IMG/VR virus record: IMGVR_UViG_3300038849_000072
Span: 500-64,499 of that record
Direction: 5' to 3' (one strand)
Origin: a virus
Taxonomy: Duplodnaviria; Caudoviricetes
Length of the DNA: 64,000 nucleotides
The position numbers and the translations under genes are program-made. Positions 1 through 64,000 of this stretch are shown here, piece after piece; positions within the stretch are counted from its first letter, which is position 1; the number at the start of each line of letters is the position of its first letter. Under the pieces are notes generated by a model. The model was given only the letters and a program-made list of their open reading frames with translations, did no database searches and was not told the origin of the DNA.

Positions 1-200
1 TTTTTCAGATAGTATACTTTCGCGAGGTCTGCAATTGTCTGAAGTTTGTCCCTGGTGAAGTCATTGCCGGATGAACCAGACAGGATCTCCCATCCGGATG
101 TGATAGGTAATGCCCGCTCTAATGTGTCTAGTCGTTCCTGCAGTAACGATAGAGCTAGAGACTGCGTTTGAATAATGCCTTCCGCTTCCTGGATCTCCAT
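1..200 (-). CDS. Portal protein, N-terminal fragment (runs off the window start)
   Basis: Own translation from ATG at 200: MEIQEAEGIIQTQSLALSLLQERLDTLERALPITSGWEILSGSSGNDFTRDKLQTIADLAKVYYLK, open to base 1. Resembles portal N-termini and is preceded by the late-promoter motif. Confidence 0.7.
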   Translation of the reverse strand, partial: MEIQEAEGIIQTQSLALSLLQERLDTLERALPITSGWEILSGSSGNDFTRDKLQTIADLAKVYYLK

Positions 201-2710: not shown

Positions 2711-2801
2711 TTCATTTCACCTGCTACAATATTACATTGGTTTACCAAATATAAATAGTTATCTCAAATCAATATGCCATATGCGATGGTATATCCATTT
2801 C

Positions 2802-2852
2802 ACTATGTTATGTTCAATAACATAGTAAGAGTCAATAAATAACATAACATAG
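2802..2852. promoter_or_regulatory. Operator-like inverted repeat in a divergent promoter region
   Basis: Perfect 10-bp IR ACTATGTTAT-GTTCA-ATAACATAGT (2802-2826) plus further ATAACATA half-sites at 2839 and 2844. Confidence 0.6.
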
Positions 2853-2863
2853 AATAATGAGAT

Positions 2864-3145
2864 GTGAAAGAGGACTGGGTAACGTCAGAGACAAAACTTC
2901 GAGGAGAGGTAATTGATGTCGAACCGTATATTTACCTATCAGAATACGGGAACAAATACCGAATAACAAAGAAACAGGAGAATGTAGAAGTTAGATTGTT
3001 TGGATTTAAGGTATGCGCTAATTGCGGTAAGGACATACCTGATGAAAAGCCAACCGAAATACAGGGCGTTTGTTTTTGTTCCGGCACTTGTGCTGATGAG
3101 TATAGAGCAAATGGCAACGTAGAGTATTACTCCCCGGATGAATAA
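2864..3145 (+). CDS. Small zinc-finger protein (TRASH/YHS-like CxxC...FCSxxC)
   Basis: CANCGKDI...CFCSGTC motif; first gene of a + strand operon. Confidence 0.55.
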   Translation: MKEDWVTSETKLRGEVIDVEPYIYLSEYGNKYRITKKQENVEVRLFGFKVCANCGKDIPDEKPTEIQGVCFCSGTCADEYRANGNVEYYSPDE

Positions 3146-3301
3146 ATGCCAACATACCACGAAATTGACGGAGTGAAATACCGGCAGACTACCGTCCTCA
3201 TCCGGGAAGATTTACACGCTCTAGCTAAATCAGAGAAGTGGAACGTTTCGGCTTTGTTGAATAAAGCGCTTGAGAACAAACGAGACGGGTGGAAGGAATG
3301 A
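3146..3301 (+). CDS. Ribbon-helix-helix / CcdA-like small regulator (51 aa)
   Basis: Own translation MPTYHEIDGVKYRQTTVLIREDLHALAKSEKWNVSALLNKALENKRDGWKE. Confidence 0.6.
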   Translation: MPTYHEIDGVKYRQTTVLIREDLHALAKSEKWNVSALLNKALENKRDGWKE

Positions 3302-3437
3302 GAACCGAACGGGAACTCAAAGACAAACTCACAGAGATTGAGATGAAGTTGCTATATCATAGATTCGATGATTTAGAATATCTCCATACTTTACAAGAAC
3401 AATATTCCTTCTTGGAATGGGTTTTGGGTGATGCAGA

Positions 3438-3647
3438 ATGATCCCTGAATGCTGCGGGGAATGCCCTGCCATATTCTACAATCGGCAGTCTTGTAATAAT
3501 GTGTGTTCTGTAATGAGGGGGCCAACAGGAAACATTTACATTACAACCAATAGACTAAAGGACTGCCCTATATTTAATCCTGAAAAACGCAGTAGGCTTG
3601 TTTATGGTGATGGGCTGTGTAAGGATTACTATGAGGTGTTTGAATGA
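3438..3647 (+). CDS. Small Cys-rich protein
   Basis: 69 aa, CCGECP...C...C...DCP; coupled to neighbours by ATGA overlaps. Confidence 0.55.
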   Translation: MIPECCGECPAIFYNRQSCNNVCSVMRGPTGNIYITTNRLKDCPIFNPEKRSRLVYGDGLCKDYYEVFE

Positions 3648-3826
3648 TCCCACCGGTTGAAGTCAGGCAAGATAGGCCATGTGAGGAATGCATCTGCCAT
3701 ATTCCTGGTTCCCCATCCTGCAAAATGGTATATCTCAACCGTAGATGGTTATCGAAAGAGCCATGTAAATACCATTTAACCGCACGGGAATTACAGGAAC
3801 TCATGGATACCGGAGTGATTGGATGA
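3644..3826 (+). CDS. Cys-rich microprotein, MIPP family member 1
   Basis: MIPPVEVRQDRPCEEC...PCKYHLTARELQELMDTGV; paralogs at 3823, 61147 and 61413. Confidence 0.7.
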   Translation: MIPPVEVRQDRPCEECICHIPGSPSCKMVYLNRRWLSKEPCKYHLTARELQELMDTGVIG

Positions 3827-4008
3827 TTATGAATCTATCCCAGCGCAAATTAAGAGATTGCTCATGGTGCATTGCGTGCTATGGACCTGATAATATGTGT
3901 AATAATCCAATATCCGATTATTATGGAGCAACTGATAGAGGTTATCGGGATTGTAAATTTAATATTACTCCCGAAGAGTTGAGAGAATTAATAGGAATGG
4001 TTGATTGA
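3823..4008 (+). CDS. Cys-rich microprotein, MIPP family member 2
   Basis: RKLRDCSWC...C...DCKFNITPEELRELI; same Cys spacing and C-terminal helix as the others. Confidence 0.65.
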   Translation: MIMNLSQRKLRDCSWCIACYGPDNMCNNPISDYYGATDRGYRDCKFNITPEELRELIGMVD

Positions 4009-4039
4009 ACTCATCGGAAATTCCGAATAGTTCGAGTGA

Positions 4040-4269
4040 TGAACCATTAAGCAATCCTTAACAGTTGGTAACATGATGACTAAACAGGAACTAGACGACT
4101 ATAAACGCCGGATAGAATTGATCATGAACGATCATGAAACATTGAAACGGTCCGAAGAGTTCCATCGTAAAATGCAGCGCAAGAACGCTGAAGATATGGA
4201 TTTGAGGTTTACAATATGAACAATCAAGTAAAACTTGAGAGTTGAACCATTAAGAAACTCTTAACAGTT
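4040..4269 (+). repeat. 27-bp direct repeats flanking a 48-aa ORF (4073-4219)
   Basis: TGAACCATTAAGCAATCCTTAACAGTT (4040-4066) and TGAACCATTAAGAAACTCTTAACAGTT (4243-4269), 24/27 identical. Confidence 0.75.
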
Positions 4270-4417
4270 CAATCCAGTTTTGTTATCCTCACCCTGTGAC
4301 CTATCCAGTCCTTAGGCGGATACACCCGGCCGGTATTGCCCTGTGCCGTCACAGTCTCCTCAATATACTCATTGCCATTCTCATCAACCTTGACCGGGTT
4401 CTTGCGTGGCCGGGCCA

Positions 4418-5851: not shown

Positions 5852-7330
5852 TTAAACCGGGCTTATCTCGTATGGTTCTTCGTATGTAACCGGGACTGTA
5901 TGCTCCTGTTTCACCGGTACAAGCATTCGAGCAGCGTAAGCAGTCATGTCTACCTGGTCATCATTCTTCCCCTTCGGGAATTTAAGTAACTCCTCTTCAA
6001 AGCCGTCCAGGTATGCAGCAGCCACGCGGTGATAAACTTTCCCGGCCTTGTATCTCATAGCCATTGGAACCGCACGGCTGTATTTATCTGCGTCTGCATT
6101 GACATCATAGATAGGTAATCCTGCTATCTGCAAATACTGTAATGTTGCAAGTCCTATACCATTCTTCTCTACCCCTATTGCAACCGGGTGATACCGAGGG
6201 TAGAGTTTCTTAACCTCATCAACCTGGTCAGGCACAGTCATTTGCATAGATAACACATCAACGAGTAACAGATCAGCAGCAGGAGTGAGATACCACGTTC
6301 CTAAAACCCCATAGTCGGCAGACGTTTTAGATGAGCCTGTTGGATCATATGTCTGGAAACAAACACAGGTGTTTTTAGGGACTACTATATCTGTATTCGG
6401 AAGATGCAAAATGAACAGATCGTCTTTTATCTCAAAGTATCTGAAATATTCTTTCTTGAACAGGCTTCCCTTTTCAGATAATGGTTTCCCCCTATACAGG
6501 GATGCAAAATCGTATGGCCCTAATGTATGCTCAATGTCCTGTAAATCATCCAGGTTGTGAAGTTCCGGGCATAGTGGTGTCCCTGGCAATCTGCCGAGGG
6601 GATCATTCTCTTCTGCAATTGCAGGGAAATTTATAACCGTCCATTTCTCTCCTTCGGTTTTCATTAACCAGCCGGATAGATCCTCTGTGTGCCACCTGGT
6701 TTGAATAAGGATAATGCATCCGTCTTGAGATAACCGGGTACGAATAACTGTCTTATACCAGTCGATTACATCTTTCCGGATGGTTTCTGATTCCGCTTCT
6801 TTCCGGTTTTTGTGGGGGTCATCAATAATTATCAGATTTGCCGGCTTGCCAGTTATCGGGCCTCCAACACCGGCAGAAATCATATATCCCCTCTGGTTTG
6901 CAATCTTCCAGGAGTCTTTCGCTTGAGAAGAGTCTGACAGTGCCAAATCCCAGATATCTAATCCTTGCGTCTTAAACAAGTTCCGAGCATTTTCAGAGAA
7001 ACCTGATGCTAAATCAGCGCCGTATGAAGTTAGAATGATTCGGTTGTTTGGATGATTCCCGAGATACCACACCGGAAACAGTTCAGACGTTGTATAACTC
7101 TTCCCGTGCTGAGGGGGCATGTTGAGAATAAGCCTTCGGATCTCTTTTCTTGCGACCTTCTCAAGAATGTCACAGAGATAATCCAGGTGATTATAGGGTT
7201 GCCAAAATTCGTCAGTCGCATATCTACAAAAGAATTTAAGCGACTCTTTCGATCTGACTCTTGCCTGATATGATAACTGATTAAACAGTATCGGGTTCTG
7301 TAAGTTTAAGGGCTGCGAGCAGCTGGTCAT
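5852..7330 (-). CDS. terL: Terminase large subunit
   Basis: Walker A NMPPQHGKS, Walker B IIIDDP, nuclease motifs YDP and NDDQVD. Confidence 0.95.
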   Translation of the reverse strand: MTSCSQPLNLQNPILFNQLSYQARVRSKESLKFFCRYATDEFWQPYNHLDYLCDILEKVARKEIRRLILNMPPQHGKSYTTSELFPVWYLGNHPNNRIILTSYGADLASGFSENARNLFKTQGLDIWDLALSDSSQAKDSWKIANQRGYMISAGVGGPITGKPANLIIIDDPHKNRKEAESETIRKDVIDWYKTVIRTRLSQDGCIILIQTRWHTEDLSGWLMKTEGEKWTVINFPAIAEENDPLGRLPGTPLCPELHNLDDLQDIEHTLGPYDFASLYRGKPLSEKGSLFKKEYFRYFEIKDDLFILHLPNTDIVVPKNTCVCFQTYDPTGSSKTSADYGVLGTWYLTPAADLLLVDVLSMQMTVPDQVDEVKKLYPRYHPVAIGVEKNGIGLATLQYLQIAGLPIYDVNADADKYSRAVPMAMRYKAGKVYHRVAAAYLDGFEEELLKFPKGKNDDQVDMTAYAARMLVPVKQEHTVPVTYEEPYEISPV

Positions 7331-7772: not shown

Positions 7773-7838
7773 TTGCTTGTACCGGTTTGTACCGGATAGG
7801 TATTATCAGGGCCCTTACTCCCTGTAAATCATAGTAAC

Positions 7839-7867
7839 AAAAACAGGATATTTAAACGGCAGGAAAT
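7839..7867 (-). promoter_or_regulatory. Late promoter motif, copy D (terminase operon)
   Basis: AAAAACAGGATATTTAAACGGCAGGAAAT; same 29-nt spacing as the other copies. Confidence 0.65.
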
Positions 7868-7870
7868 GAA

Positions 7871-16911: not shown

Positions 16912-19017
16912 TCAGATCCTCCGGATTTTGCCTTTCTTCTCTGTGAATTCTGCAATCCGTTTCTTTTCAGAGATTATTCTTTCAACTTCAGAACGAGCAT
17001 GACCTGATTTAAGAAGAATCTCAAATATTACTGCTTCTTCAGCCCATCCGTCTGCATCCTGGTTTCGATCATACGTCTTATCGAATTCTTTGATAAGATC
17101 CCTGGTGCTCTTTGGTTTATCCCCGCCCCATCTATCTGAATCTAATTCTCCGGTTTTCGGATCATATGCTACTTTCCTCAGGCACTGATCTACGATATGG
17201 ATAACTAACTCTGCATCCCGCTCATCGACCGTTTCAGACAGTCTGACCCGTGCGGATGCTTCAGCGAGTCTTATGAGTGCTTCAATCTGACGTGCAGTGA
17301 TTGGTACTGGTTTTCCTTCTGATGCTTCTGACCGGACAGATACGAAATAGTTTTGAAGTTTCAGTTTTGCTTCTGGAGTGAGAACCGGGATGATCCGCTT
17401 TGCATAGGCAATGTATTTTCGCATTAATACCGGATGGATTGGAGGTAATACCAGATTCTCTAATATTACCGGTTCCCGTTTCTCATGTTCGGCTTTTAAT
17501 ATCTCTGTGCCGGTTGAATGAGCTGATAAGATATGGTTTGCAAGTTTCGTGTCATGAGTTGTTTCAGGTTTATCCGTAACCAGATAGATGAGATCAAACC
17601 GGGATAGCAGAGATGGAGGCATATTAATCTGTTCTGCTATCGGCAGATAGTTATCAAATCGTCCTAACTTTGGATTTGCGGCTGCGAGAACAGATGTCCG
17701 GGTTAAGAGCGTGGCACATATCCCCGCTTTGGCAACAGATAGGGACTGCTGTTCCATCGCTTCATGGAGGGATGACCGATCATGAGAGTTCATCTTATCA
17801 ATCTCATCAAGGGCCAGAACTCCCATATCTGCAAGAACCATTGCCCCGGCCTCTAGTGTCCATCTCCCATCAAACTCATCTTTTACAGCCGTTGCTGTGA
17901 GTCCTGCAGATGATGAGCTCTTCCCTGATGTGAAAATTGATCGCGGTGCAATCTTGGTTACATACCGGATAACCTGAGACTTACCTGAACCTGGATCCCC
18001 TATGAGTAATACATGAATATCCCCACGTAACCGGGATCCGTCCGGTAAGTTCTTTGGGACTCCTCCAAAGAGCTGGAGAACGATTGCTTTCTTGATGTCA
18101 TCCATCCCGTAAATACTCGGAGAGATGGAATGGAAGAACCTGATGAACACGTCTTTTTCTTTTGAGAGTTCGCGGATAGATTTCTCATCGTCTTCAGAGA
18201 TGGTTATCTCACCGAACTCTTTTTCCTGGATTTCAATGGATACGACTTCCAGGTATCGATCAAACGTTGTGGATTGTCCTCTTTGAAACCGCTTTACAAT
18301 CCCATTGATACAAACCCGATCACCAGCTTTGATGATACCACAAATATCATCGGATATCTGACAGTCGATGGTTTCTAATGATGAACCTGCACCAGCACCC
18401 TCTGGAGACTCCTGGATCTTTACTCTCTGTGTATCTACATACTGCGAGAACTCCTCTTGGAATTCTAAACGCGTCTGATTACATCCATCGGCTGAACACT
18501 CCTGAGGGACTTTGATAGGGCCTGGACCTTGTATCCTGGTGGTTCTGTGTCCTGCTCTACATCTGAATACTGCAATGGTGAGCCGGGATCTTACCTCAGA
18601 TGACTTTCTCACAATCCCTTCAATCGTGACTAATTTGCCTACGTGTAAGTTTTCACGGATATCAGGAATGGATGTTTTTCTTGGCAGGTTGAAGAACCGA
18701 ACATGGATTGGTATGTTCAAAGTCTTCTGATTAGATACTAACGAATGAACGAGAATACAGTCCTGAACGTCCTTCATCGTTTTTAATGGATTATCCAGGA
18801 TCTCATCTGCTAATGATATGCCGGGGAATCCGTATGCTTCGATGACTCTGTAATCCAGGTTTAATGATCGCTTTTTCGGGTACTCCCTGGAGAGTTTCAG
18901 GACTTCTTTCTTTATTGTCGGATGTTCATTCAGGATACTATACCAAATTGCGTCTCTATCAACAATGATTGCAGACACCCCGGATGATACTGAACCACAT
19001 GCATCGGAGAGATTCAA
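16912..19017 (-). CDS. mcm: MCM replicative helicase
   Basis: Walker A GDPGSGKSQ, Walker B LDEIDKM, AANP, arginine finger SRFD, ITARQIEALIRLAEA. Confidence 0.97.
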   Translation of the reverse strand: MNLSDACGSVSSGVSAIIVDRDAIWYSILNEHPTIKKEVLKLSREYPKKRSLNLDYRVIEAYGFPGISLADEILDNPLKTMKDVQDCILVHSLVSNQKTLNIPIHVRFFNLPRKTSIPDIRENLHVGKLVTIEGIVRKSSEVRSRLTIAVFRCRAGHRTTRIQGPGPIKVPQECSADGCNQTRLEFQEEFSQYVDTQRVKIQESPEGAGAGSSLETIDCQISDDICGIIKAGDRVCINGIVKRFQRGQSTTFDRYLEVVSIEIQEKEFGEITISEDDEKSIRELSKEKDVFIRFFHSISPSIYGMDDIKKAIVLQLFGGVPKNLPDGSRLRGDIHVLLIGDPGSGKSQVIRYVTKIAPRSIFTSGKSSSSAGLTATAVKDEFDGRWTLEAGAMVLADMGVLALDEIDKMNSHDRSSLHEAMEQQSLSVAKAGICATLLTRTSVLAAANPKLGRFDNYLPIAEQINMPPSLLSRFDLIYLVTDKPETTHDTKLANHILSAHSTGTEILKAEHEKREPVILENLVLPPIHPVLMRKYIAYAKRIIPVLTPEAKLKLQNYFVSVRSEASEGKPVPITARQIEALIRLAEASARVRLSETVDERDAELVIHIVDQCLRKVAYDPKTGELDSDRWGGDKPKSTRDLIKEFDKTYDRNQDADGWAEEAVIFEILLKSGHARSEVERIISEKKRIAEFTEKKGKIRRI

Positions 19018-38233: not shown

Positions 38234-39400
38234 TCAATTATCTAACTCTCCTCTATCCTTTAGCGCTTGTGTTATCTTTTGCATGTCGGATTGTATTCTC
38301 TCTATCTTCTCTAATTTCGCGTTCAGTTGTTGGATCTCAGATTCTTTTTTGATATTATCAGACATAAGATACTGAAGAGAATGGCTCATCGATTCTCGTT
38401 CCGCTTTGATTTCAGGTAAGTTTTCAGCAGAATGCAGAGATATAGCATAATACGCTTTATCATACTCTTTCTTGAGTTGATCAACAGAATAACGGCGATA
38501 TGAACCGGATAAGTACCCTTCATGCCCCATTAACGCTTCTACCATTTCAGCAGGCATTACTGTTTTTAACTGACTGTGAAAGAATTTCCTGATAGAGTGG
38601 CTGGTAATCGTAGCCCATCCGGTATTCGGGTCACGTTCTAACAACCCTGCTTTTTCAAGTCCGTTAGTATAAACAACTTGTATAGTGTTGTTTGATGCAG
38701 GGATTATCCGAGTATCTCCCATATTCCGATGTTTCCCCATCCACCTACGAGACGATTGGTGTACCCAGGTATCCCGATACTCAAGCCATTCTTTCAAAGC
38801 GAATATTGCTTCATTCGATAAGAAAGTCACCCGTTCTTTTTGGTTCTTGGTAGTCGTCCTGCCTGCATTTGAACGCCGGACATACACGATCCCATCCTCA
38901 ATATCAACATCTTCAGGCTCTAATCCCAATACCTCTCCTATTCGCATCCCTGATGAGAGCTGCATCATCAATGCTACTCTACCAATCCGGGACAAATGCT
39001 CATACCATCGTTTGATCTCGTCGTGAGTCAGTATGTGATCCTGTGTCTGAACTCTCCGTTTCTCAATTGATGACTTCAAAAACTGTATTTGTGATTTCTT
39101 GAGACTGATATCGTTTAGATCCAACCAAAGAATCACGGTTGTTAAATGCAGGTTTTTAGGATTTGGTGCATATCCGGACAGGTATGTGATGAACTGCAAC
39201 AGGTTTGAGATGTGATCCTGTTCTGACTTGAGATACTCCAGGCTCAACTCATCCATCCGGGCAACATGATCAGCAGAACGAGAGTAACCCTCGTATTTCG
39301 TGCCGGATAAACACTCAAAGAACAGGCACAATGACTGACGGTATTGATGTTTGGTGCCCTGAGTTCTGCGTGAGTTGACAAACTGGAGGAGAGAGATCAT
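38234..39400 (-). CDS. int: Tyrosine integrase
   Basis: SSGMRIGE (R), KNQKER (K), HSIRKF (HxxR), LMGH...Y catalytic motifs. Confidence 0.92.
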   Translation of the reverse strand: MISLLQFVNSRRTQGTKHQYRQSLCLFFECLSGTKYEGYSRSADHVARMDELSLEYLKSEQDHISNLLQFITYLSGYAPNPKNLHLTTVILWLDLNDISLKKSQIQFLKSSIEKRRVQTQDHILTHDEIKRWYEHLSRIGRVALMMQLSSGMRIGEVLGLEPEDVDIEDGIVYVRRSNAGRTTTKNQKERVTFLSNEAIFALKEWLEYRDTWVHQSSRRWMGKHRNMGDTRIIPASNNTIQVVYTNGLEKAGLLERDPNTGWATITSHSIRKFFHSQLKTVMPAEMVEALMGHEGYLSGSYRRYSVDQLKKEYDKAYYAISLHSAENLPEIKAERESMSHSLQYLMSDNIKKESEIQQLNAKLEKIERIQSDMQKITQALKDRGELDN

Positions 39401-51596: not shown

Positions 51597-51613
51597 AATA
51601 AGAGTTTCATCTT

Positions 51614-51642
51614 AAAAATAGGAGATATAAAGGGCAGGAGAA
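51614..51642 (-). promoter_or_regulatory. Late promoter motif, copy B (tape measure)
   Basis: AAAAATAGGAGATATAAAGGGCAGGAGAA; core ends 29 nt before the start codon. Confidence 0.75.
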
Positions 51643-51649
51643 AAAAAGA

Positions 51650-58417: not shown

Positions 58418-59557
58418 TTAACTTCCTGAACCGTTTGAAGCGACTGCAAAGCGCCAATCCTTCTGACATCCGCCGAATACGTGAGTGACCTTGTATTCAA
58501 ATGAACGGCTGTCAAAGTCGCCGATTGCGGCCTCTACTCCGCCCATTACCTCAGCATCTGCCTTCTTCTTCAGGACAAGTGGCTGATCTCCGATACCTCT
58601 GAGGAATCCTATCTCAAACGCTCCTCTTCCCTGGTTTGGATCTCCGAGTAAGAACCATGACTCATCGTCCGGCCCGTCTGCAGTGACGATGTTTGGAAGC
58701 CAGTCGAGTACACAGAGCTGGAGACCTCCGAACCGGTTGGAGTTCTGCAGAGTGAAACCTACCTGCTTACTGTTTGCAGTGTTCAGGTTGGCAAACATCA
58801 GGTTTGATGCACCTAACAGATCCTTTGCAGTCTCTTCAAGTGCTGGAGCCACTGCGAGGATTGCCGGAGTGGTGTTCATCGGACTTCCGTCAGGTTTTCT
58901 GATTGCCCGGAATGCCTTTACACCTGCACGTAACCCGTCTGCATTGAGCTTGTTGGTAATCAGGTTTACCTGTCCGGATTCTGATTTGAAGAAACTTGCG
59001 TGCGGACCTGCTGCATCGACAAGCAGAGAAGTAGCGAATCTCTCCACAGTGTTCTTTGCGTCCTGTCCGAGAGTTGACGGGAGAGACTGGAATGCGTTCA
59101 GATCATCGTTTACGAGCATCTCCCATGAGAATTTCATTGATTCCTCATAGGTTTCAACTGCGTAGTAGTATCTGCCTTCTTCTGGAACCGGGATCTCTGG
59201 ACCCTTCTGTCCTTCCTTGACTTTCTCAAGCAGGTTACCAGTGTTCAGATACTTCAGGTACTGAGTTCTGAAATCACGGACGTTTCGATTGATATAACAC
59301 CAAGTCTGATAGGTGGATGGTGCCTCATTGTATGCTCCGAGAAGTCTGGAGCTGAGGTTATCCCCTAACAGGATTGGGAAGTCAGACGTTCCCATTGCTT
59401 CTGAAAGCAGATGAGATGGCATTTTGCCGTTCACAACACCGTTAATGAGGTTGTTTGCTTCTGCGAGTGCCTTTCTATATCCGGGATCGTCCATCCGTCC
59501 CTTTTTGATAAGCCCTGCAGAGTTATACGATTCCATTAACGCTGAAAAGTTTTTCAT
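58418..59557 (-). CDS. Major capsid protein (HK97 fold, Mu gpT-like)
   Basis: TSDFPILL...LL.AY...DF..., FSWEMLVNDDL.AF..LP..LG..A, L.V.PALE..A. Confidence 0.85.
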   Translation of the reverse strand: MKNFSALMESYNSAGLIKKGRMDDPGYRKALAEANNLINGVVNGKMPSHLLSEAMGTSDFPILLGDNLSSRLLGAYNEAPSTYQTWCYINRNVRDFRTQYLKYLNTGNLLEKVKEGQKGPEIPVPEEGRYYYAVETYEESMKFSWEMLVNDDLNAFQSLPSTLGQDAKNTVERFATSLLVDAAGPHASFFKSESGQVNLITNKLNADGLRAGVKAFRAIRKPDGSPMNTTPAILAVAPALEETAKDLLGASNLMFANLNTANSKQVGFTLQNSNRFGGLQLCVLDWLPNIVTADGPDDESWFLLGDPNQGRGAFEIGFLRGIGDQPLVLKKKADAEVMGGVEAAIGDFDSRSFEYKVTHVFGGCQKDWRFAVASNGSGS

Positions 59558-59933: not shown

Positions 59934-61094
59934 TTAGAGCCTCCGAACAATCTCTTTGGCAGTCTCTTCACTCATGCCAGAATCAACATACGACTGAATG
60001 AGCGCCTTATCTGCCTCTTCCATAGTCGTGGTAGTTGGTTCTGGAGTGGTTGAACCCATGCCTTTGACAGTGCCCTTAGATCCGGTGAGAGACTTTGCAT
60101 AGGTGATTTCAGATTCGATGAATGCCTTGAGTGACTCTACATCGAGTTTGCCTTCGATCATCTTCGCGTTCTGAACTGCTGCAGTTTTAATCCGCTCTTT
60201 TGCGAGTTCAGGGACTTCTGATTTCTCAATCAGTTCTGATGCAAATCCGGCCGCTTCTGCGAGGATGTTCTTTTCCTGCTCTTTTGCCAGTGATTCTTTG
60301 AGATTGGTATTCTCTGCTTCAATTGCAGTTATCTGTGCTTTGAGAGTATCGTTCTCTCTCATAAGAGTCTGGTTCGCCTTTTCGGCTTCCCTCATTGACT
60401 CAATCCGTGCGAGCCAGTCCCCCCGTGATTCAGTTACAATCTCAGGTGAGATTTGGCCACTTTCCTTGATTTCAGCCATTTTTGTATTCCCTTGAGTCTC
60501 ACTGATTTGTAACTCGTGAGTCTCATCGTCCGAATTGACGCCCGTATTTACCCAGGACTCGTATATTGCCCCGATAGAGCCTTTGGCTCCCGGCTGTGTC
60601 ACGAAATCAACTGATAATACTGCATCAATGCTTTCGACAATCGGCCCTGTTTTGCCGCCTGCTTCACCTATCCGGGTTTTTCCTAATACAAAGTGACTGA
60701 CACCAATTACCGGTGCAGCCTCTTTGATAAAATCAGCATAGTTTGGCAATGCTTTTGCAGTCTGGTAAAGCCCCGGCCCATAAATCCCGTTATCCTGCCA
60801 TGTTGCCTGATCTTCTATGAAGTATGCAGCCAACTGGTTCAGATCCCTCTCGGGCCGTTCTTTGAGTTCAGCCCTTGAAGCGTGATTTATGAACATCTTC
60901 GTGCCGGATTTGTATAATCCGGCTGATTTAGTCAGGATCTTTTTTGAATAAAATCCTGAACTCCCCCATCCTTCTGCAATGATTCTGACCGGAAAAGTGC
61001 CGTCTGAGTTAAAAGCAGACTCTGATAGCGGGCAGGATGCATCGCTCGTCAGCGTGCGCTGAGTCATCACGGAATCTAGCCCTGACTCTGTCAT
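59934..61094 (-). CDS. Prohead protease/scaffold
   Basis: VRII.EGWGSSG.YS...H..., VGVSH, SVDFVT.PGA.G followed by a coiled-coil scaffold region. Confidence 0.8.
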   Translation of the reverse strand: MTESGLDSVMTQRTLTSDASCPLSESAFNSDGTFPVRIIAEGWGSSGFYSKKILTKSAGLYKSGTKMFINHASRAELKERPERDLNQLAAYFIEDQATWQDNGIYGPGLYQTAKALPNYADFIKEAAPVIGVSHFVLGKTRIGEAGGKTGPIVESIDAVLSVDFVTQPGAKGSIGAIYESWVNTGVNSDDETHELQISETQGNTKMAEIKESGQISPEIVTESRGDWLARIESMREAEKANQTLMRENDTLKAQITAIEAENTNLKESLAKEQEKNILAEAAGFASELIEKSEVPELAKERIKTAAVQNAKMIEGKLDVESLKAFIESEITYAKSLTGSKGTVKGMGSTTPEPTTTTMEEADKALIQSYVDSGMSEETAKEIVRRL

Positions 61095-61107
61095 ATACGA
61101 ATATACT

Positions 61108-61136
61108 AAAAATAGGAGTTATAAACGGCAGGAAAT
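61108..61136 (-). promoter_or_regulatory. Late promoter motif, copy C (capsid operon)
   Basis: AAAAATAGGAGTTATAAACGGCAGGAAAT; core ends 25 nt before the ATG. Confidence 0.75.
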
Positions 61137-61146
61137 AATTAGTGCA

Positions 61147-61416
61147 TTGAAAACAGATTATACTGGTATGATCCCGCCGGTTAGTGTGAGGGAGATAAGA
61201 TCCTGTGAGTCATGCCATGCCTGCAATCAGGATTGTGATTATGGTTGTAATTGTGGATTGGATGAGTTGTTTGTAACCAGAAATGATAGTGATTCTCACT
61301 GGCATGATTCATCTTCTCATGTTAATATCACTTTGAATATCCCTATTCTACCTTGTAAATATCATTTAACAGACGATGAATACATAGAACTGATTGATTC
61401 CGGAGTGGTTGAATGA
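61147..61416 (+). CDS. Cys-rich microprotein, MIPP family member 3 (likely ATG at 61168)
   Basis: MIPPVSVREIRSCESC...PCKYHLTDDEYIELIDSGV. Confidence 0.7.
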   Translation: MKTDYTGMIPPVSVREIRSCESCHACNQDCDYGCNCGLDELFVTRNDSDSHWHDSSSHVNITLNIPILPCKYHLTDDEYIELIDSGVVE

Positions 61417-61604
61417 TCCCACCAATTGAAGAAAGAGCATTTAGGACGTGTTCAGATTGTATATTCTCATATGAGACACATATGGGAGATACTGAATGCA
61501 AACTACAGATAGATGTGCTAAAAAGATATGTTCTGGGCAAATCCTGTATTTATAATTACGAAATTGACGAAATGAAAGAACTACTTGATAATCTTGAAAA
61601 ATAG
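61413..61604 (+). CDS. Cys-rich microprotein, MIPP family member 4
   Basis: MIPPIEERAFRTCSDC...C...SCIYNYEIDEMKELLD. Confidence 0.7.
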   Translation: MIPPIEERAFRTCSDCIFSYETHMGDTECKLQIDVLKRYVLGKSCIYNYEIDEMKELLDNLEK

Positions 61605-61606
61605 AG

Positions 61607-61840
61607 TTAATCAGAGAATAACAGACTCACATCAATCTTTTTGCTCAATTCGTCTCTGATTTCAAACCTGATACCATTGTCACCGGGATACGGTTTCCTG
61701 TGATCGAATGGAGGAGTATTCTTACCCAGATCTGAATACCTAAGATCATCAGGTATACCGTCTCGGAATGCGTCGCAAGACCGCCCGTCGGCGTGCATGT
61801 GTTTACAAAAAATACAGTTTCCTTGTCGTGGCTGTGTCAT
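61607..61840 (-). CDS. Small Cys-containing protein downstream of MuF
   Basis: CIFCKH...CDAF.DGIP...DHRKPYPGDNGIRFE. Confidence 0.65.
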   Translation of the reverse strand: MTQPRQGNCIFCKHMHADGRSCDAFRDGIPDDLRYSDLGKNTPPFDHRKPYPGDNGIRFEIRDELSKKIDVSLLFSD

Positions 61841-61846
61841 AAAAAA

Positions 61847-63040
61847 TTATTTCTTTGGTTTCTTCATACGTTTCTTTGGTAAAAGTTCTGGTTCTGTTTT
61901 AACTCTACCAACCGGCATTGGTTCTCCAGGGATGTATAAGTCCACAGGTTCATCATAGATTTGTTTCACTGCAGTCGGTGCAGTTTTTGTCGTTACTAAA
62001 TCATCAGTTTTCTTAATTAGTTGATTTATCTGGTTTATTCTATCATCAATTTGAGGTTTCGGTTTCTTTGGCTTATCTGGCAATGGTTTATCATACCCGT
62101 TCTTGTATTTCGGATTCGGTTTTACAATTACTCTATCCCCCTGCCGGGTAACAATCCACCGATCATCAGGTAGCCCTGAACGCTCTTTCCTGTCTCCAAC
62201 CCTTGAACCAGTACCACACCTGCAACCGGGGAACCGTGGCGGGAATTGGTGCCCTGACGGGAATGCTTCACGGCTATCAATCCATGATGCAGCACCATTC
62301 TCAATACATCCGTCAGATACCCGAGCATCACCCATATTCATCCATCGCTTGAGCATCTGCCATCCTTTCGCCTCCATCTTGTCTCTAGCTAACTGCTTTG
62401 ATGTCTCCCCGGCTTCCCTCAGCTCTGTTACTGCTACAAGATGTGCCCGGTTACGAATATGACTCGGGCCTTTGACAGGTGCCCCAAAATCCTTGAACTT
62501 GTCTTTAATCTCTTTGGCTATCTGCTGATGAGTCTTGTATTTGGTTGTGCCGTCCGGTTGAAGCTCACCTTTGAACCCTTTGGCGATAATCTCCCGGATG
62601 TCTTTCTTCGTGGTATCATCTATCTGTGAGATCTTTTTTCCAGCGTTTTGCTCAATATGTTTGTATGCCTCCTCATCAAAGTCATCAAAAGAGATTTTAG
62701 TACCTATCGTCCTCGGCTTTGCTGCTTCTTCAAGCGGTATGGATAACTCGTTCTCAAGTGCCCGTAAACAAGTATACGCTGCTCTTCGTTTGTGCTTTAG
62801 GAGTAGGTCTCTGAACTCCAGGTATGTTTCAAGCTGAGTACGATCCCAGGCACGCTGAAAGTCATCCTCGTCAAACTCTTCAGGCAGGTATTGGAGCAAT
62901 ATGTTTCCCTGGTGCCGGAAGAACCGGGCCATATCATTTGCCATAGACTTCTCGAGAGAGACCATGGCGATCTCTCCCTGCCTGAACGCTTTCAGCCGTT
63001 GGTATTCGGCTGTTGCTTCAAGAAACGGAATCAGTATCAT
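61847..63040 (-). CDS. Head morphogenesis protein (SPP1 gp7/MuF)
   Basis: I..IDDTT...I, RA.LVAVTE..., K.W...D.RV...C..NG...FP.G...PP..P.CRC. Confidence 0.85.
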   Translation of the reverse strand: MILIPFLEATAEYQRLKAFRQGEIAMVSLEKSMANDMARFFRHQGNILLQYLPEEFDEDDFQRAWDRTQLETYLEFRDLLLKHKRRAAYTCLRALENELSIPLEEAAKPRTIGTKISFDDFDEEAYKHIEQNAGKKISQIDDTTKKDIREIIAKGFKGELQPDGTTKYKTHQQIAKEIKDKFKDFGAPVKGPSHIRNRAHLVAVTELREAGETSKQLARDKMEAKGWQMLKRWMNMGDARVSDGCIENGAASWIDSREAFPSGHQFPPRFPGCRCGTGSRVGDRKERSGLPDDRWIVTRQGDRVIVKPNPKYKNGYDKPLPDKPKKPKPQIDDRINQINQLIKKTDDLVTTKTAPTAVKQIYDEPVDLYIPGEPMPVGRVKTEPELLPKKRMKKPKK

Positions 63041-64000
63041 TTAGTGATTCCTGAATCTTGTTTAGTGTCTTTGCTATCTCTCTATCCAGGGACTCCCATG
63101 TGTCTTCAACTGGTTCATCCTGTGGATCATCCTCCTCCTGTCCCGCCTTGTTCAGGCGCTGCATAACTATCTCATCGGTTGGAAACAGTTTTGCGAGGAG
63201 ATCATCTGCATCGTCGAGTTTCAGGATCCGGAGTAGTAACCGGGTGATGGTTTTCATATCCATCGTCCCTGCAAGTTCTCTCCCGTCTAACGTCGCTGCA
63301 TGGATGATTGCCAGTATCTGTTCATTTACGTCGTGTTCTACGATGTCAGGGAACGTAACGGAAACTTTACGGGATATGCCCCCGGATAAGACGATCTGTT
63401 CTTCTCCATACTCATCTTCGATGATATCGCCCTGCAGGATCCCATGTGGCGCTTTGACTGACTGATCAATAACATACTGACAGATGTCCTGTAAGATGTC
63501 TGACCATAGTCTCTGCCGGTCCATGAACTGAAGCTCAGACGGCCTTTCTAAACTTTTACTTGTCGCGAGGTTTGCGGTACTTGGATCGGCTGCTAGTAGT
63601 TGCTCTGGTATGCCTACTGCAGAGCCCACCATCAGTATGTATCGCCGTGAATCGTCTACATCAGTCGTTGCTCCGCTGAACTTATACGGCTGGAGTTGTG
63701 TGTTTTGGTTGCCTACAAAGATACCTGCACTTGCGTAATCACCGTTGCTGTCAGGTGTAAGCATCGCCTCCAATCCGGTTTTGGCTGCTGCAACCGCACT
63801 AGCCCCGCCCTTAACCGTGGCGTTCCAGGCAAAACGACTGTAAGCTTTTACCAGCTTGAGCCAGTCCTCTAAGAACTCTTTGTATCCTCTGCTCCAGTCT
63901 ATAGCACAATATACCTCAGAGACTCCCCACAACATATCAGATAATGAATTGGTTTTGATATGCAGCACGGGTATATCCCAGTTCACTGTCATCCCGTCAA
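63018..64000 (-). CDS. Portal protein, C-terminal part (runs off the window end)
   Basis: Frame open to 64000; GVSEVY.A.DW...Y.EFL, VGIPE..L.ADPST.NLAT..SL.RP; upstream of MuF. Confidence 0.85.
   Translation of the reverse strand, partial: DGMTVNWDIPVLHIKTNSLSDMLWGVSEVYCAIDWSRGYKEFLEDWLKLVKAYSRFAWNATVKGGASAVAAAKTGLEAMLTPDSNGDYASAGIFVGNQNTQLQPYKFSGATTDVDDSRRYILMVGSAVGIPEQLLAADPSTANLATSKSLERPSELQFMDRQRLWSDILQDICQYVIDQSVKAPHGILQGDIIEDEYGEEQIVLSGGISRKVSVTFPDIVEHDVNEQILAIIHAATLDGRELAGTMDMKTITRLLLRILKLDDADDLLAKLFPTDEIVMQRLNKAGQEEDDPQDEPVEDTWESLDREIAKTLNKIQESLNDTDSVS

Follow-up and report, generated by a model that had tools for sequence, protein, structure and literature searches.

What does a tailed virus gain from four small, cysteine-rich proteins of one kind? 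This question is raised by the 64,000-nucleotide stretch of DNA analyzed here (hereafter the window), which covers bases 500-64499 of a 64,499-bp IMG/VR record (IMGVR_UViG_3300038849_000072) classed as having direct terminal repeats. The proteins, most of which begin with Met-Ile-Pro-Pro and are termed MIPP here, are encoded by two tandem pairs of genes. A preliminary description of these genes, made from the sequence alone, had proposed a shuffled family forming a diversifying, small zinc-binding scaffold, such as anti-defense inhibitors or host-protein binders; the observation is confirmed by the current analysis, while the interpretation is partly supported. The comparisons presented below indicate that MIPP is a real, undescribed family that is restricted, among everything searched, to the archaeal genus Methanospirillum and its viruses, and the main new fact is the existence of cellular homologues, two groups of which are maintained in conserved synteny. 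As for their function, we tentatively favor, with a probability of roughly 0.4, that MIPP proteins are dimeric, protein-binding scaffolds built around a four-cysteine metal knot and that the viral copies mimic or compete with their host paralogues.

All four open reading frames (ORFs) are present on the plus strand where they had been described, and their similarity exceeds chance by BLASTP, with E values of 3e-6 for gene 1 against gene 3 (read from 61168) and 3e-5 for gene 1 against gene 4 in a search space of 2e7 residues. Pair 1 consists of gene 1 (3644..3826, 60 amino acids, family profile E 1e-20) and gene 2 (3823..4008, 61 amino acids, E 5e-15), whereas pair 2 consists of gene 3 (61147..61416, E 2e-21), which encodes 89 amino acids from the TTG at 61147 or 82 from the ATG at 61168, and gene 4 (61413..61604, 63 amino acids, E 2e-19). 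Both pairs are translationally coupled via ATGA overlaps, the start of gene 4 overlapping the stop of gene 3, and the start of gene 1 likewise overlaps the stop of the gene upstream of it (ATGA). The N-terminal arm M-I-P-P-V-E-(E/V)-R-x-x-R-x-C-x-x-C is shared by genes 1, 3 (from 61168) and 4, and the C-terminal helix motif (P)C-x-(Y/F)-(H/N)-x-T-x-x-E-x-x-E-L-(I/L/M)-D is found in all four proteins, for a window consensus of MIPPVEERxxRPCxxC...C...PCxYHxTxxExxELIDSG. The MIPP start had been attributed to every member, but gene 2 is an exception, as it begins with MIMNLSQRKLRDC and has a divergent N-terminus (MIMNLSQRKLRDCSWC) in which M-I, R8, R11 and the CxxC are kept and P-P is lost. Gene 3 has a long middle insert rich in Cys, His and Asp, and it probably starts at TTG 61147, since a leader of the form MKTDxxx is kept in its relatives P0010, P0021 and P0051 and one relative has Val in place of the inner Met. 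At the DNA level, positions 3636-3693 are 71% identical to 61405-61462 and 62% identical to 61160-61217, in agreement with the earlier report that genes 1 and 4 match at their starts, and the C-terminal sequence PCKYHLT...ELxDxGV is indeed common to genes 1 and 3. The four proteins have isoelectric points (pI) between 4.5 and 6.7.

A profile of the four proteins, the check that the preliminary description had proposed, found 12 close clusters in a set of 5.8 billion proteins and 82 representatives at E<1e-3 among 1.84 billion clusters of 50% identity, 13 of them at E<1e-10, with almost all aligning from residue 1. The family consensus is MIPPVEERxxRPCxxC ... C ... PCKYHxTxxExxELIDSG, and members are about 55-110 amino acids long. 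Columns I2, R8, C13, C16, C26, C41 and E49 (gene 1 numbering) are invariant among 55 aligned sequences, and the four Cys residues are invariant in a second alignment of 53 sequences as well, both alignments including all four window proteins. Their spacing is C-x2-C-x9-25-C-x14-50-C, and the segment from the CxxC to the final conserved Cys has a median of 29 residues and a maximum of 59. The family is mostly acidic, with a median pI of 4.85 and 41 of 55 members below pI 6. The ratios of nonsynonymous to synonymous substitutions (dN/dS, Nei-Gojobori) are 0.05-0.19 for window genes compared with orthologues from other viral contigs, including 0.08-0.19 for gene 1 against orthologues of 73-78% identity in L011, L012 and L013 and 0.16 for gene 4 against an orthologue of 64% identity in L005/L006, and they are 0.06-0.13 for cellular orthologue pairs with unsaturated dS. 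Such values lie far below 1 and show that the MIPP ORFs are coding and under purifying selection.

Two of the outcomes that had been named as fatal to the idea of a family, an insignificant alignment and assignment to a known housekeeping family, did not occur, and the earlier statement that the family is unrecognized holds by sequence and by fold. Pfam, PHROGs and NCBIfam gave no recurrent match for the four window proteins or the 55 members (at E<=0.1 for Pfam, with one Fer2 match among the 55), the family profile found no match among Protein Data Bank (PDB) sequences even at E 10, tblastn against deposited phage and virus genomes gave no family match, and the ESM Atlas returned only unnamed viral clusters (<0.9). 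Three longer metagenome members, P0083, P0091 and P0034, have a second Cys-rich module at the C-terminus, which has no Pfam match and exhibits the motif ..C.(F/L)LGHP..(I/D)DDNY.N...RC.CR.KKY in P0083 and P0091 and a looser form of it in P0034. Two further candidates were set aside. The 14 "stretches" of P0084 (5144 amino acids) cover roughly 10-24 profile positions at independent E values of 0.05-1 in a repetitive protein and are spurious, while P0007, an apparent fusion of an S4 domain with MIPP, occurs on a single 1.6-kb contig, with its MIPP part beginning from an internal V-I-P-P, and is probably an over-extended ORF call.

When cellular genomes are examined, the family is confined to a single genus. 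A pattern scan of 185,579 species genomes, built on an alignment of 12 sequences, yielded one locus, in Methanospirillum stamsii Pt1, and a profile search of that genome revealed four chromosomal copies. With the profile, 22 of 25 Methanospirillum genomes match and encode 1-4 chromosomal copies each, the three negatives being genomes of 1.6, 1.6 and 2.5 Mb. Matches were found in 17 of 301 genomes in a sample of the class, all 17 of which are Methanospirillum, and in 0 of 400 other genomes of the phylum. Two orthologue groups occupy conserved positions. The first, of 83 amino acids, includes M. hungatei Mhun_0544 (WP_011447591), which is annotated as hypothetical, and in at least eight genomes its constant neighbors are a DUF5698/DUF2179 membrane protein, a response regulator with PAS domains and a universal stress protein. 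The second, of 107 amino acids, is near-universal in Methanospirillum (L043:3989-4309, L044:3908-4228, L045:3989-4309 and L046-L048) and joins the family domain to a strongly basic tail (..SLRFRTSVQTRRS..GRR..NRK); its gene lies, in three genomes, downstream of split YeeE-like sulfur-transport genes and convergent with TFS, and in three others beside formate dehydrogenase and a NUDIX gene. A group of 93-96 amino acids has variable neighbors. No mention of Mhun_0544 and no relevant paper on Methanospirillum viruses were found in the literature searched. We infer that Methanospirillum is also the host of the window virus, as its capsid protein has homologues of 56%, 49% and 32% identity in three Methanospirillum genomes (L040-L042); the nearest isolate is Methanoculleus virus Blf4, at 35%.

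Among viruses, the family is carried by twelve IMG/VR loci and by several metagenome contigs, commonly as tandem arrays of 2-4 copies (L011, L012, L013 and L020). The preliminary description was correct that the ends are constant and the middle variable, the four Cys being invariant and the middle differing in both length and sequence. This variability had been read as the mark of a diversifying scaffold, which the selection data do not bear out, because orthologues are under purifying selection and the middle is conserved inside subfamilies (residues 26-46 of the gene 1 group are nearly identical across four viruses). In the tree, whose backbone is not resolved, the window genes fall in four separate subfamilies, each including orthologues from elsewhere; gene 2, for example, shares its subfamily with P0015 and P0011 and groups with P0015 and L007. 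The variable middles thus reflect old paralogue lineages rather than ongoing diversifying selection. The suggestion of module shuffling is borne out by concrete cases beyond the window. P0002 and P0008 are identical at 44 of 46 positions over residues 1-46 but at only 5 of 14 over the C-terminal helix, while in P0012 the ends are those of P0003 (12/13 and 19/21 identical) and the middle instead aligns with P0027 (score 70 versus -17). Entire genes appear to move as well. In one metagenome contig, homology to the window is limited to exactly 3643-3826 and the sequences to either side differ, and window 3288-3406 is 97.5% identical in DNA to L005 868-986, whereas the scaffold, capsid, MuF head protein, portal and terminase of L005 have no tblastn similarity to those of the window. 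The latter comparison points to the recent exchange of a small-gene cassette between the window virus and L005. Within arrays, each conserved 3' gene end is followed directly by the conserved 5' end of its neighbor, creating a repeated junction of about 60 nucleotides that could promote the exchange of middles.

Viral arrays also contain decayed or remodeled copies, such as a C13Y copy and a copy with a Cys-free middle that keeps only the N-terminal arm and C-terminal helix (L012:1553-1732 and L012:2328-2486), copies truncated to the C-terminal part (L015:2547-2654, L016:5983-6090 and L018:891-1040) and a copy fused to another N-terminus. The orientation of the genes varies between viruses. 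They are opposite to adjoining minus-strand ORFs (241 and 465 amino acids) in L011, L016 and L018, co-directional with portal/MuF in L005/L006 and L014, and downstream of MCM in L007/L008, so that a location on the strand opposite the morphogenesis genes, which had been noted for both window pairs, is not a trait of the family.

A structural model offers a possible account of why the two ends are conserved jointly. The AlphaFold2 model of gene 1, built from the 55-sequence alignment, has a mean predicted local distance difference test (pLDDT) score of 81.6, with 87-91 at the ends and 56 in the middle, and its secondary structure is sparse, consisting of a turn at residues 5-8 and a helix at 47-56 (pLDDT about 90); Mhun_0544 is predicted to have the same topology at lower confidence (66.8). 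When two copies are modeled with zinc carried along, the interface score (ipSAE) is 0.61, 0.59 and 0.61, compared to 0.04 for the best of three controls, the partner reaches a pLDDT of 79 or more, and 96% or more of contacts recur between runs. The modeled interface (residues 2, 4-5, 17-21, 27-32 and 42-60) is made up mostly of the conserved arm, the positions that immediately follow the CxxC and one side of the C-terminal helix. In these models, the arm and helix would pack together, creating the core as well as a symmetric interface between the two identical chains, with the middle as a loop tolerant of insertion and replacement. The conserved E49, E52 and D55 project from the opposite face of the helix, where they may clamp R8 and R11, and a clamp of this sort would explain the joint conservation of both ends with the loop free to vary. 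The four Cys residues are expected to hold one metal center, either zinc or an iron-sulfur (Fe-S) cluster. Fold searches (Foldseek against the PDB, VIA-align against 48,161 chains, and BFVD) returned nothing significant, and this small fold is probably new.

Based upon these features, our preferred reading is that MIPP proteins serve as protein-binding adaptors in which the variable loop would set specificity. Protein binding is favored over DNA binding or catalysis by the acidity of the family, the predicted dimer, the stable scaffold with its replaceable loop and the absence of constant enzyme neighbors, and the occurrence of paralogues in the host core genome alongside arrays in viruses suggests that the viral proteins mimic host proteins or compete with them. 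Presumably, the viral paralogues would bind the same cellular partner as the host copies or form heterodimers with them through the shared interface, and the outcome would be the reprogramming of a host process in infection or lysogeny. In viruses, the family is found multiplied as tandem arrays, translationally coupled and placed within operons of small genes. Several observations count against this reading. Homology searches tie the family to no function, and the cellular neighborhoods are unlike between orthologue groups, without a consistent functional hint. The Cys-less and C13Y array members imply that not every copy can act via a metal site. The dimer rests on a predictor-based mark; in calibration, 20 of 30 proteins whose solved structures are pairs attained it, as did 1 of 23 with single-chain structures, and these counts apply only approximately here given that the MIPP models used their own alignment and zinc. 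Lastly, contigs from RNA libraries touch the locus only at 2914-3135, 3384-3523 and 4155-4295, and the MIPP genes are covered only by run X2, which is probably DNA, so transcription is neither supported nor contradicted; the habitat labels (wastewater, digesters) are based on shares no greater than 0.27.

Pair 1 is embedded in a plus-strand operon of small genes. The first of these (2864..3145, 93 amino acids) has a C-terminal zinc-finger-like CxxC...CxxxC and sub-threshold Pfam matches only (zf-FCS, E 0.005). It is followed by a gene for a ribbon-helix-helix (RHH)-like protein (3146..3301, 51 amino acids, sub-threshold CcdA match at E 0.001) and a gene for a helical protein (3289..3441, 50 amino acids), to whose DNA the 97.5% match with L005 868-986 belongs. 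RHH-like homologues lie directly upstream of the MIPP genes in L005 and L020, where the order of RHH-like gene, 50-amino acid gene and MIPP recurs. The promoter region of the operon contains operator-like repeats (2796..2859), namely a perfect 10-nucleotide palindrome (ACTATGTTAT/ATAACATAGT) at 2802-2826 and a third half-site, an arrangement that fits autoregulation by the RHH-like protein. It is likely, judging from sequence features, that this protein is the autoregulator of the operon and that the repeats are its operator. Pair 2 is accompanied by neither an RHH-like gene nor a palindrome. Immediately upstream of gene 1, and translationally coupled to it, is a Cys-rich ORF that starts with MIPE (3438..3647 on the plus strand, 69 amino acids, seven Cys) and was considered as a fifth member or a degenerate relative, but its score of 0.8 bits against the family profile leaves membership unsupported. 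The last codons of this ORF resemble the end of a MIPP gene. We also rejected a Rosetta-stone link between the helical protein at 3289 (..FLEWVLG) and the longer members (..LEWVLSL..), which amounts to a 5-residue BLAST identity at E of about 5. The operon closes with a 48-amino acid gene (4073..4219, plus strand) homologues of which (87-92% identity) come after the MIPP arrays of L011, L012, L016 and L018. A hairpin-forming element, GAACCATTAAG-N5-CTTAACAGTT, flanks this last gene at 4034-4066 and 4237-4269 (cores 4041-4066 and 4244-4269). None would be expected by chance, and copies of 94-100% identity are found beside small genes in the dissimilar viruses L005, L014, L015, L016 and L018; the element could serve as a cassette boundary or a terminator.

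The remainder of the genome is that of a tailed archaeal virus, circular or terminally repeated, which is probably temperate. Pfam matches on the minus strand identify a ParB-like protein (396-914), a PAPS (phosphoadenosine phosphosulfate)-reductase/DUF3440 protein (899-2116), the large terminase (5852-7330), an MCM helicase (16912-19017), an HK97-type capsid protein (58418-59557), the Mu-F-like head protein MuF (61847-63040) and a tyrosine integrase (38234-39400; Phage_integrase, E 3e-18), the last of which suggests a temperate lifestyle. A scaffold gene is tentatively assigned to 59934-61094, and a minus-strand ORF of 524 amino acids that crosses the window ends (63018-64000, record 108-499 and window 1-200) is the putative portal by its position upstream of MuF. 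The record start recurs at window 63894-64000 as a terminal repeat of 107 nucleotides, for a unit genome of about 64.4 kb, which places the two MIPP pairs about 6.4 kb apart on the circle, both of them within the head/packaging module. Pair 1 has the terminase side on one flank and the PAPS-reductase/ParB block on the other, while pair 2 is a two-gene island between MuF and the putative scaffold gene. The preliminary description had placed both pairs beside portal/MuF genes and antisense to morphogenesis genes. The first statement fits pair 2, which adjoins MuF, but not pair 1, which is about 3.4 kb from the portal start; the second must be withdrawn, since both plus-strand islands occupy gaps among the minus-strand genes and overlap none of them. 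A CxxC-containing ORF of 77 amino acids (61607..61840, minus strand), which has no Pfam match and is not a family member, sits between MuF and pair 2 and has a homologue in L012. No convincing inverted repeats of the kind expected for an invertible cassette flank pair 2. A TATA-containing motif of 32 nucleotides occurs four times (217-248, 7838-7869, 51613-51644 and 61107-61138), each time just upstream of the start of a minus-strand structural or packaging gene. The copy at 61107..61138 (minus strand) heads the putative scaffold gene and directly borders the plus-strand start of MIPP gene 3, and it may be a shared or bidirectional control region.

One rival explanation is that the viral copies are anti-defense proteins, akin to inhibitors of CRISPR or restriction systems and produced from an operon in the style of anti-CRISPR (acr) and anti-CRISPR-associated (aca) genes with a small repressor. 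We regard this as unlikely. The proteins are indeed small, acidic and predicted to be dimeric, several paralogues occur in arrays that vary among related viruses, gene-sized units are swapped between otherwise dissimilar viruses, and the first operon includes an operator-like palindrome and an RHH-like gene. However, such a family should be confined to mobile elements, outside the host core genome, whereas syntenic chromosomal orthologues in two groups are present in nearly all Methanospirillum genomes, which would be unexpected for dedicated inhibitors of host immunity and weakens a purely anti-defense role. Furthermore, the purifying selection comes without the signal of an arms race, no similarity to described inhibitors was found, and no defense target was identified. 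It is conceivable, though distinctly improbable in our estimation, that MIPP dimers regulate transcription in a metal-dependent manner or bind nucleic acids and that the viral copies retarget host or viral promoters. The acidity of most members, the lack of a basic tail in the viral forms and the lack of a recognizable DNA-binding motif all speak against such a role, and conserved R8 and R11, which together with a symmetric predicted dimer might otherwise hint at it, could equally be explained by salt bridges to the E49/E52/D55 helix face. In its favor, pair 1 shares an operon with an RHH-like regulator, and the near-universal cellular form of 107 amino acids ends in a strongly basic tail, its gene facing TFS in convergent orientation in three genomes.

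A role as small Fe-S redox carriers, similar to ferredoxins or high-potential iron-sulfur proteins (HiPIPs), that feed redox enzymes of the virus seems to us very improbable. It would account for the four invariant Cys (C-x2-C...C...C), the aromatic residues beside them and the very limited regular secondary structure, and it would suit an anaerobic host and a virus that encodes a PAPS-reductase-like enzyme. Yet no recurrent ferredoxin or HiPIP match was obtained with Pfam, the lone Fer2 match notwithstanding, Foldseek found no match in the PDB, and the only hit in BFVD was a HiPIP-like phage protein with an E value of 9.6. The divergence of the four paralogues, their exchangeable loops and the existence of a Cys-less member are also more in keeping with binding than with electron transfer. 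The notion that these are chance ORFs or nonfunctional remnants is scarcely credible. Although the ORFs are very short, are not covered by RNA-library contigs and have truncated counterparts in L015, L016 and L018, this notion is contradicted by dN/dS values far below 1, 82 clusters with conserved motifs, coupled starts and syntenic cellular orthologues.

To our knowledge, almost nothing is known of how methanogen viruses control their hosts, and we know of no cultured virus of Methanospirillum, a key syntrophic partner in digesters and wetlands. The MIPP family provides a lineage marker that ties a set of uncultured, MCM-encoding tailed viruses to this genus, as well as a small, tractable protein without a known fold relative. 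The presence of one gene family in both the host core genome and expanded viral arrays is the pattern expected of host mimicry, and an identified partner would reveal the host process targeted by these viruses.

Several known systems resemble MIPP in part. One superficial likeness is to the RNA polymerase subunit N (RpoN/Rpb10, PF01194), an archaeal protein of about 60 amino acids which, as seen in the Methanospirillum RpoN translation, begins with MIP..R.CxxC and ends with a C-terminal Cys followed by a ...LT..E..ID helix. However, homology was rejected, as profile comparison with hhalign gave a probability of 0.7% over 4 columns, no member matches PF01194 and no PDB chain was matched, and we treat the likeness as coincidence. 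Archaeal zinc-finger micro-proteins, such as HVO_0758 (PF23137) and DUF2116 (PF09889), are similarly shorter than 100 amino acids, with four Cys and presumed metal stabilization, but they contain two CxxC knuckles in a zinc ribbon or treble clef, whereas MIPP has one CxxC and two isolated Cys. No MIPP member matches the PF23137 or PF09889 models, and only the unrelated neighboring ORF at 2864 scored, below threshold. The acr-aca operons and the anti-CRISPR families of archaeal viruses feature several small acidic proteins, a small repressor, an operator and variable gene content. The MIPP proteins parallel them in being small and acidic and in a gene content that varies between related viruses, and the operon of pair 1 may do so in its RHH-like gene and operator-like repeats; the family departs from them in having conserved chromosomal orthologues in the host and no homology to known inhibitors.

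A further parallel, by analogy only, is with the WhiB-like (Wbl) proteins, which are small proteins with four invariant Cys that occur as several chromosomal paralogues in Actinobacteria and also in actinophages. Like Wbl, MIPP proteins are small, have four Cys and are found in one host lineage as chromosomal paralogues and viral copies, and their cellular form of 107 amino acids resembles Wbl proteins further in its basic C-terminal tail. Unlike Wbl, they belong to an archaeal, genus-restricted lineage, have other Cys spacing and motifs, and share no sequence similarity with Wbl (no PF02467 match among the 55 members at Pfam E<=0.1). A bolder proposal, which we offer as speculation with long odds against it, would make MIPP a genus-specific regulatory module, an archaeal analogue of the WhiB-like metalloproteins that acts on transcription or other core machinery, which viruses have captured and multiplied into recombining arrays and whose viral copies heterodimerize with host paralogues via the arm-helix interface to seize a host control circuit. 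If this were true, both the fold and the way in which these viruses mimic their methanogen host would be new.

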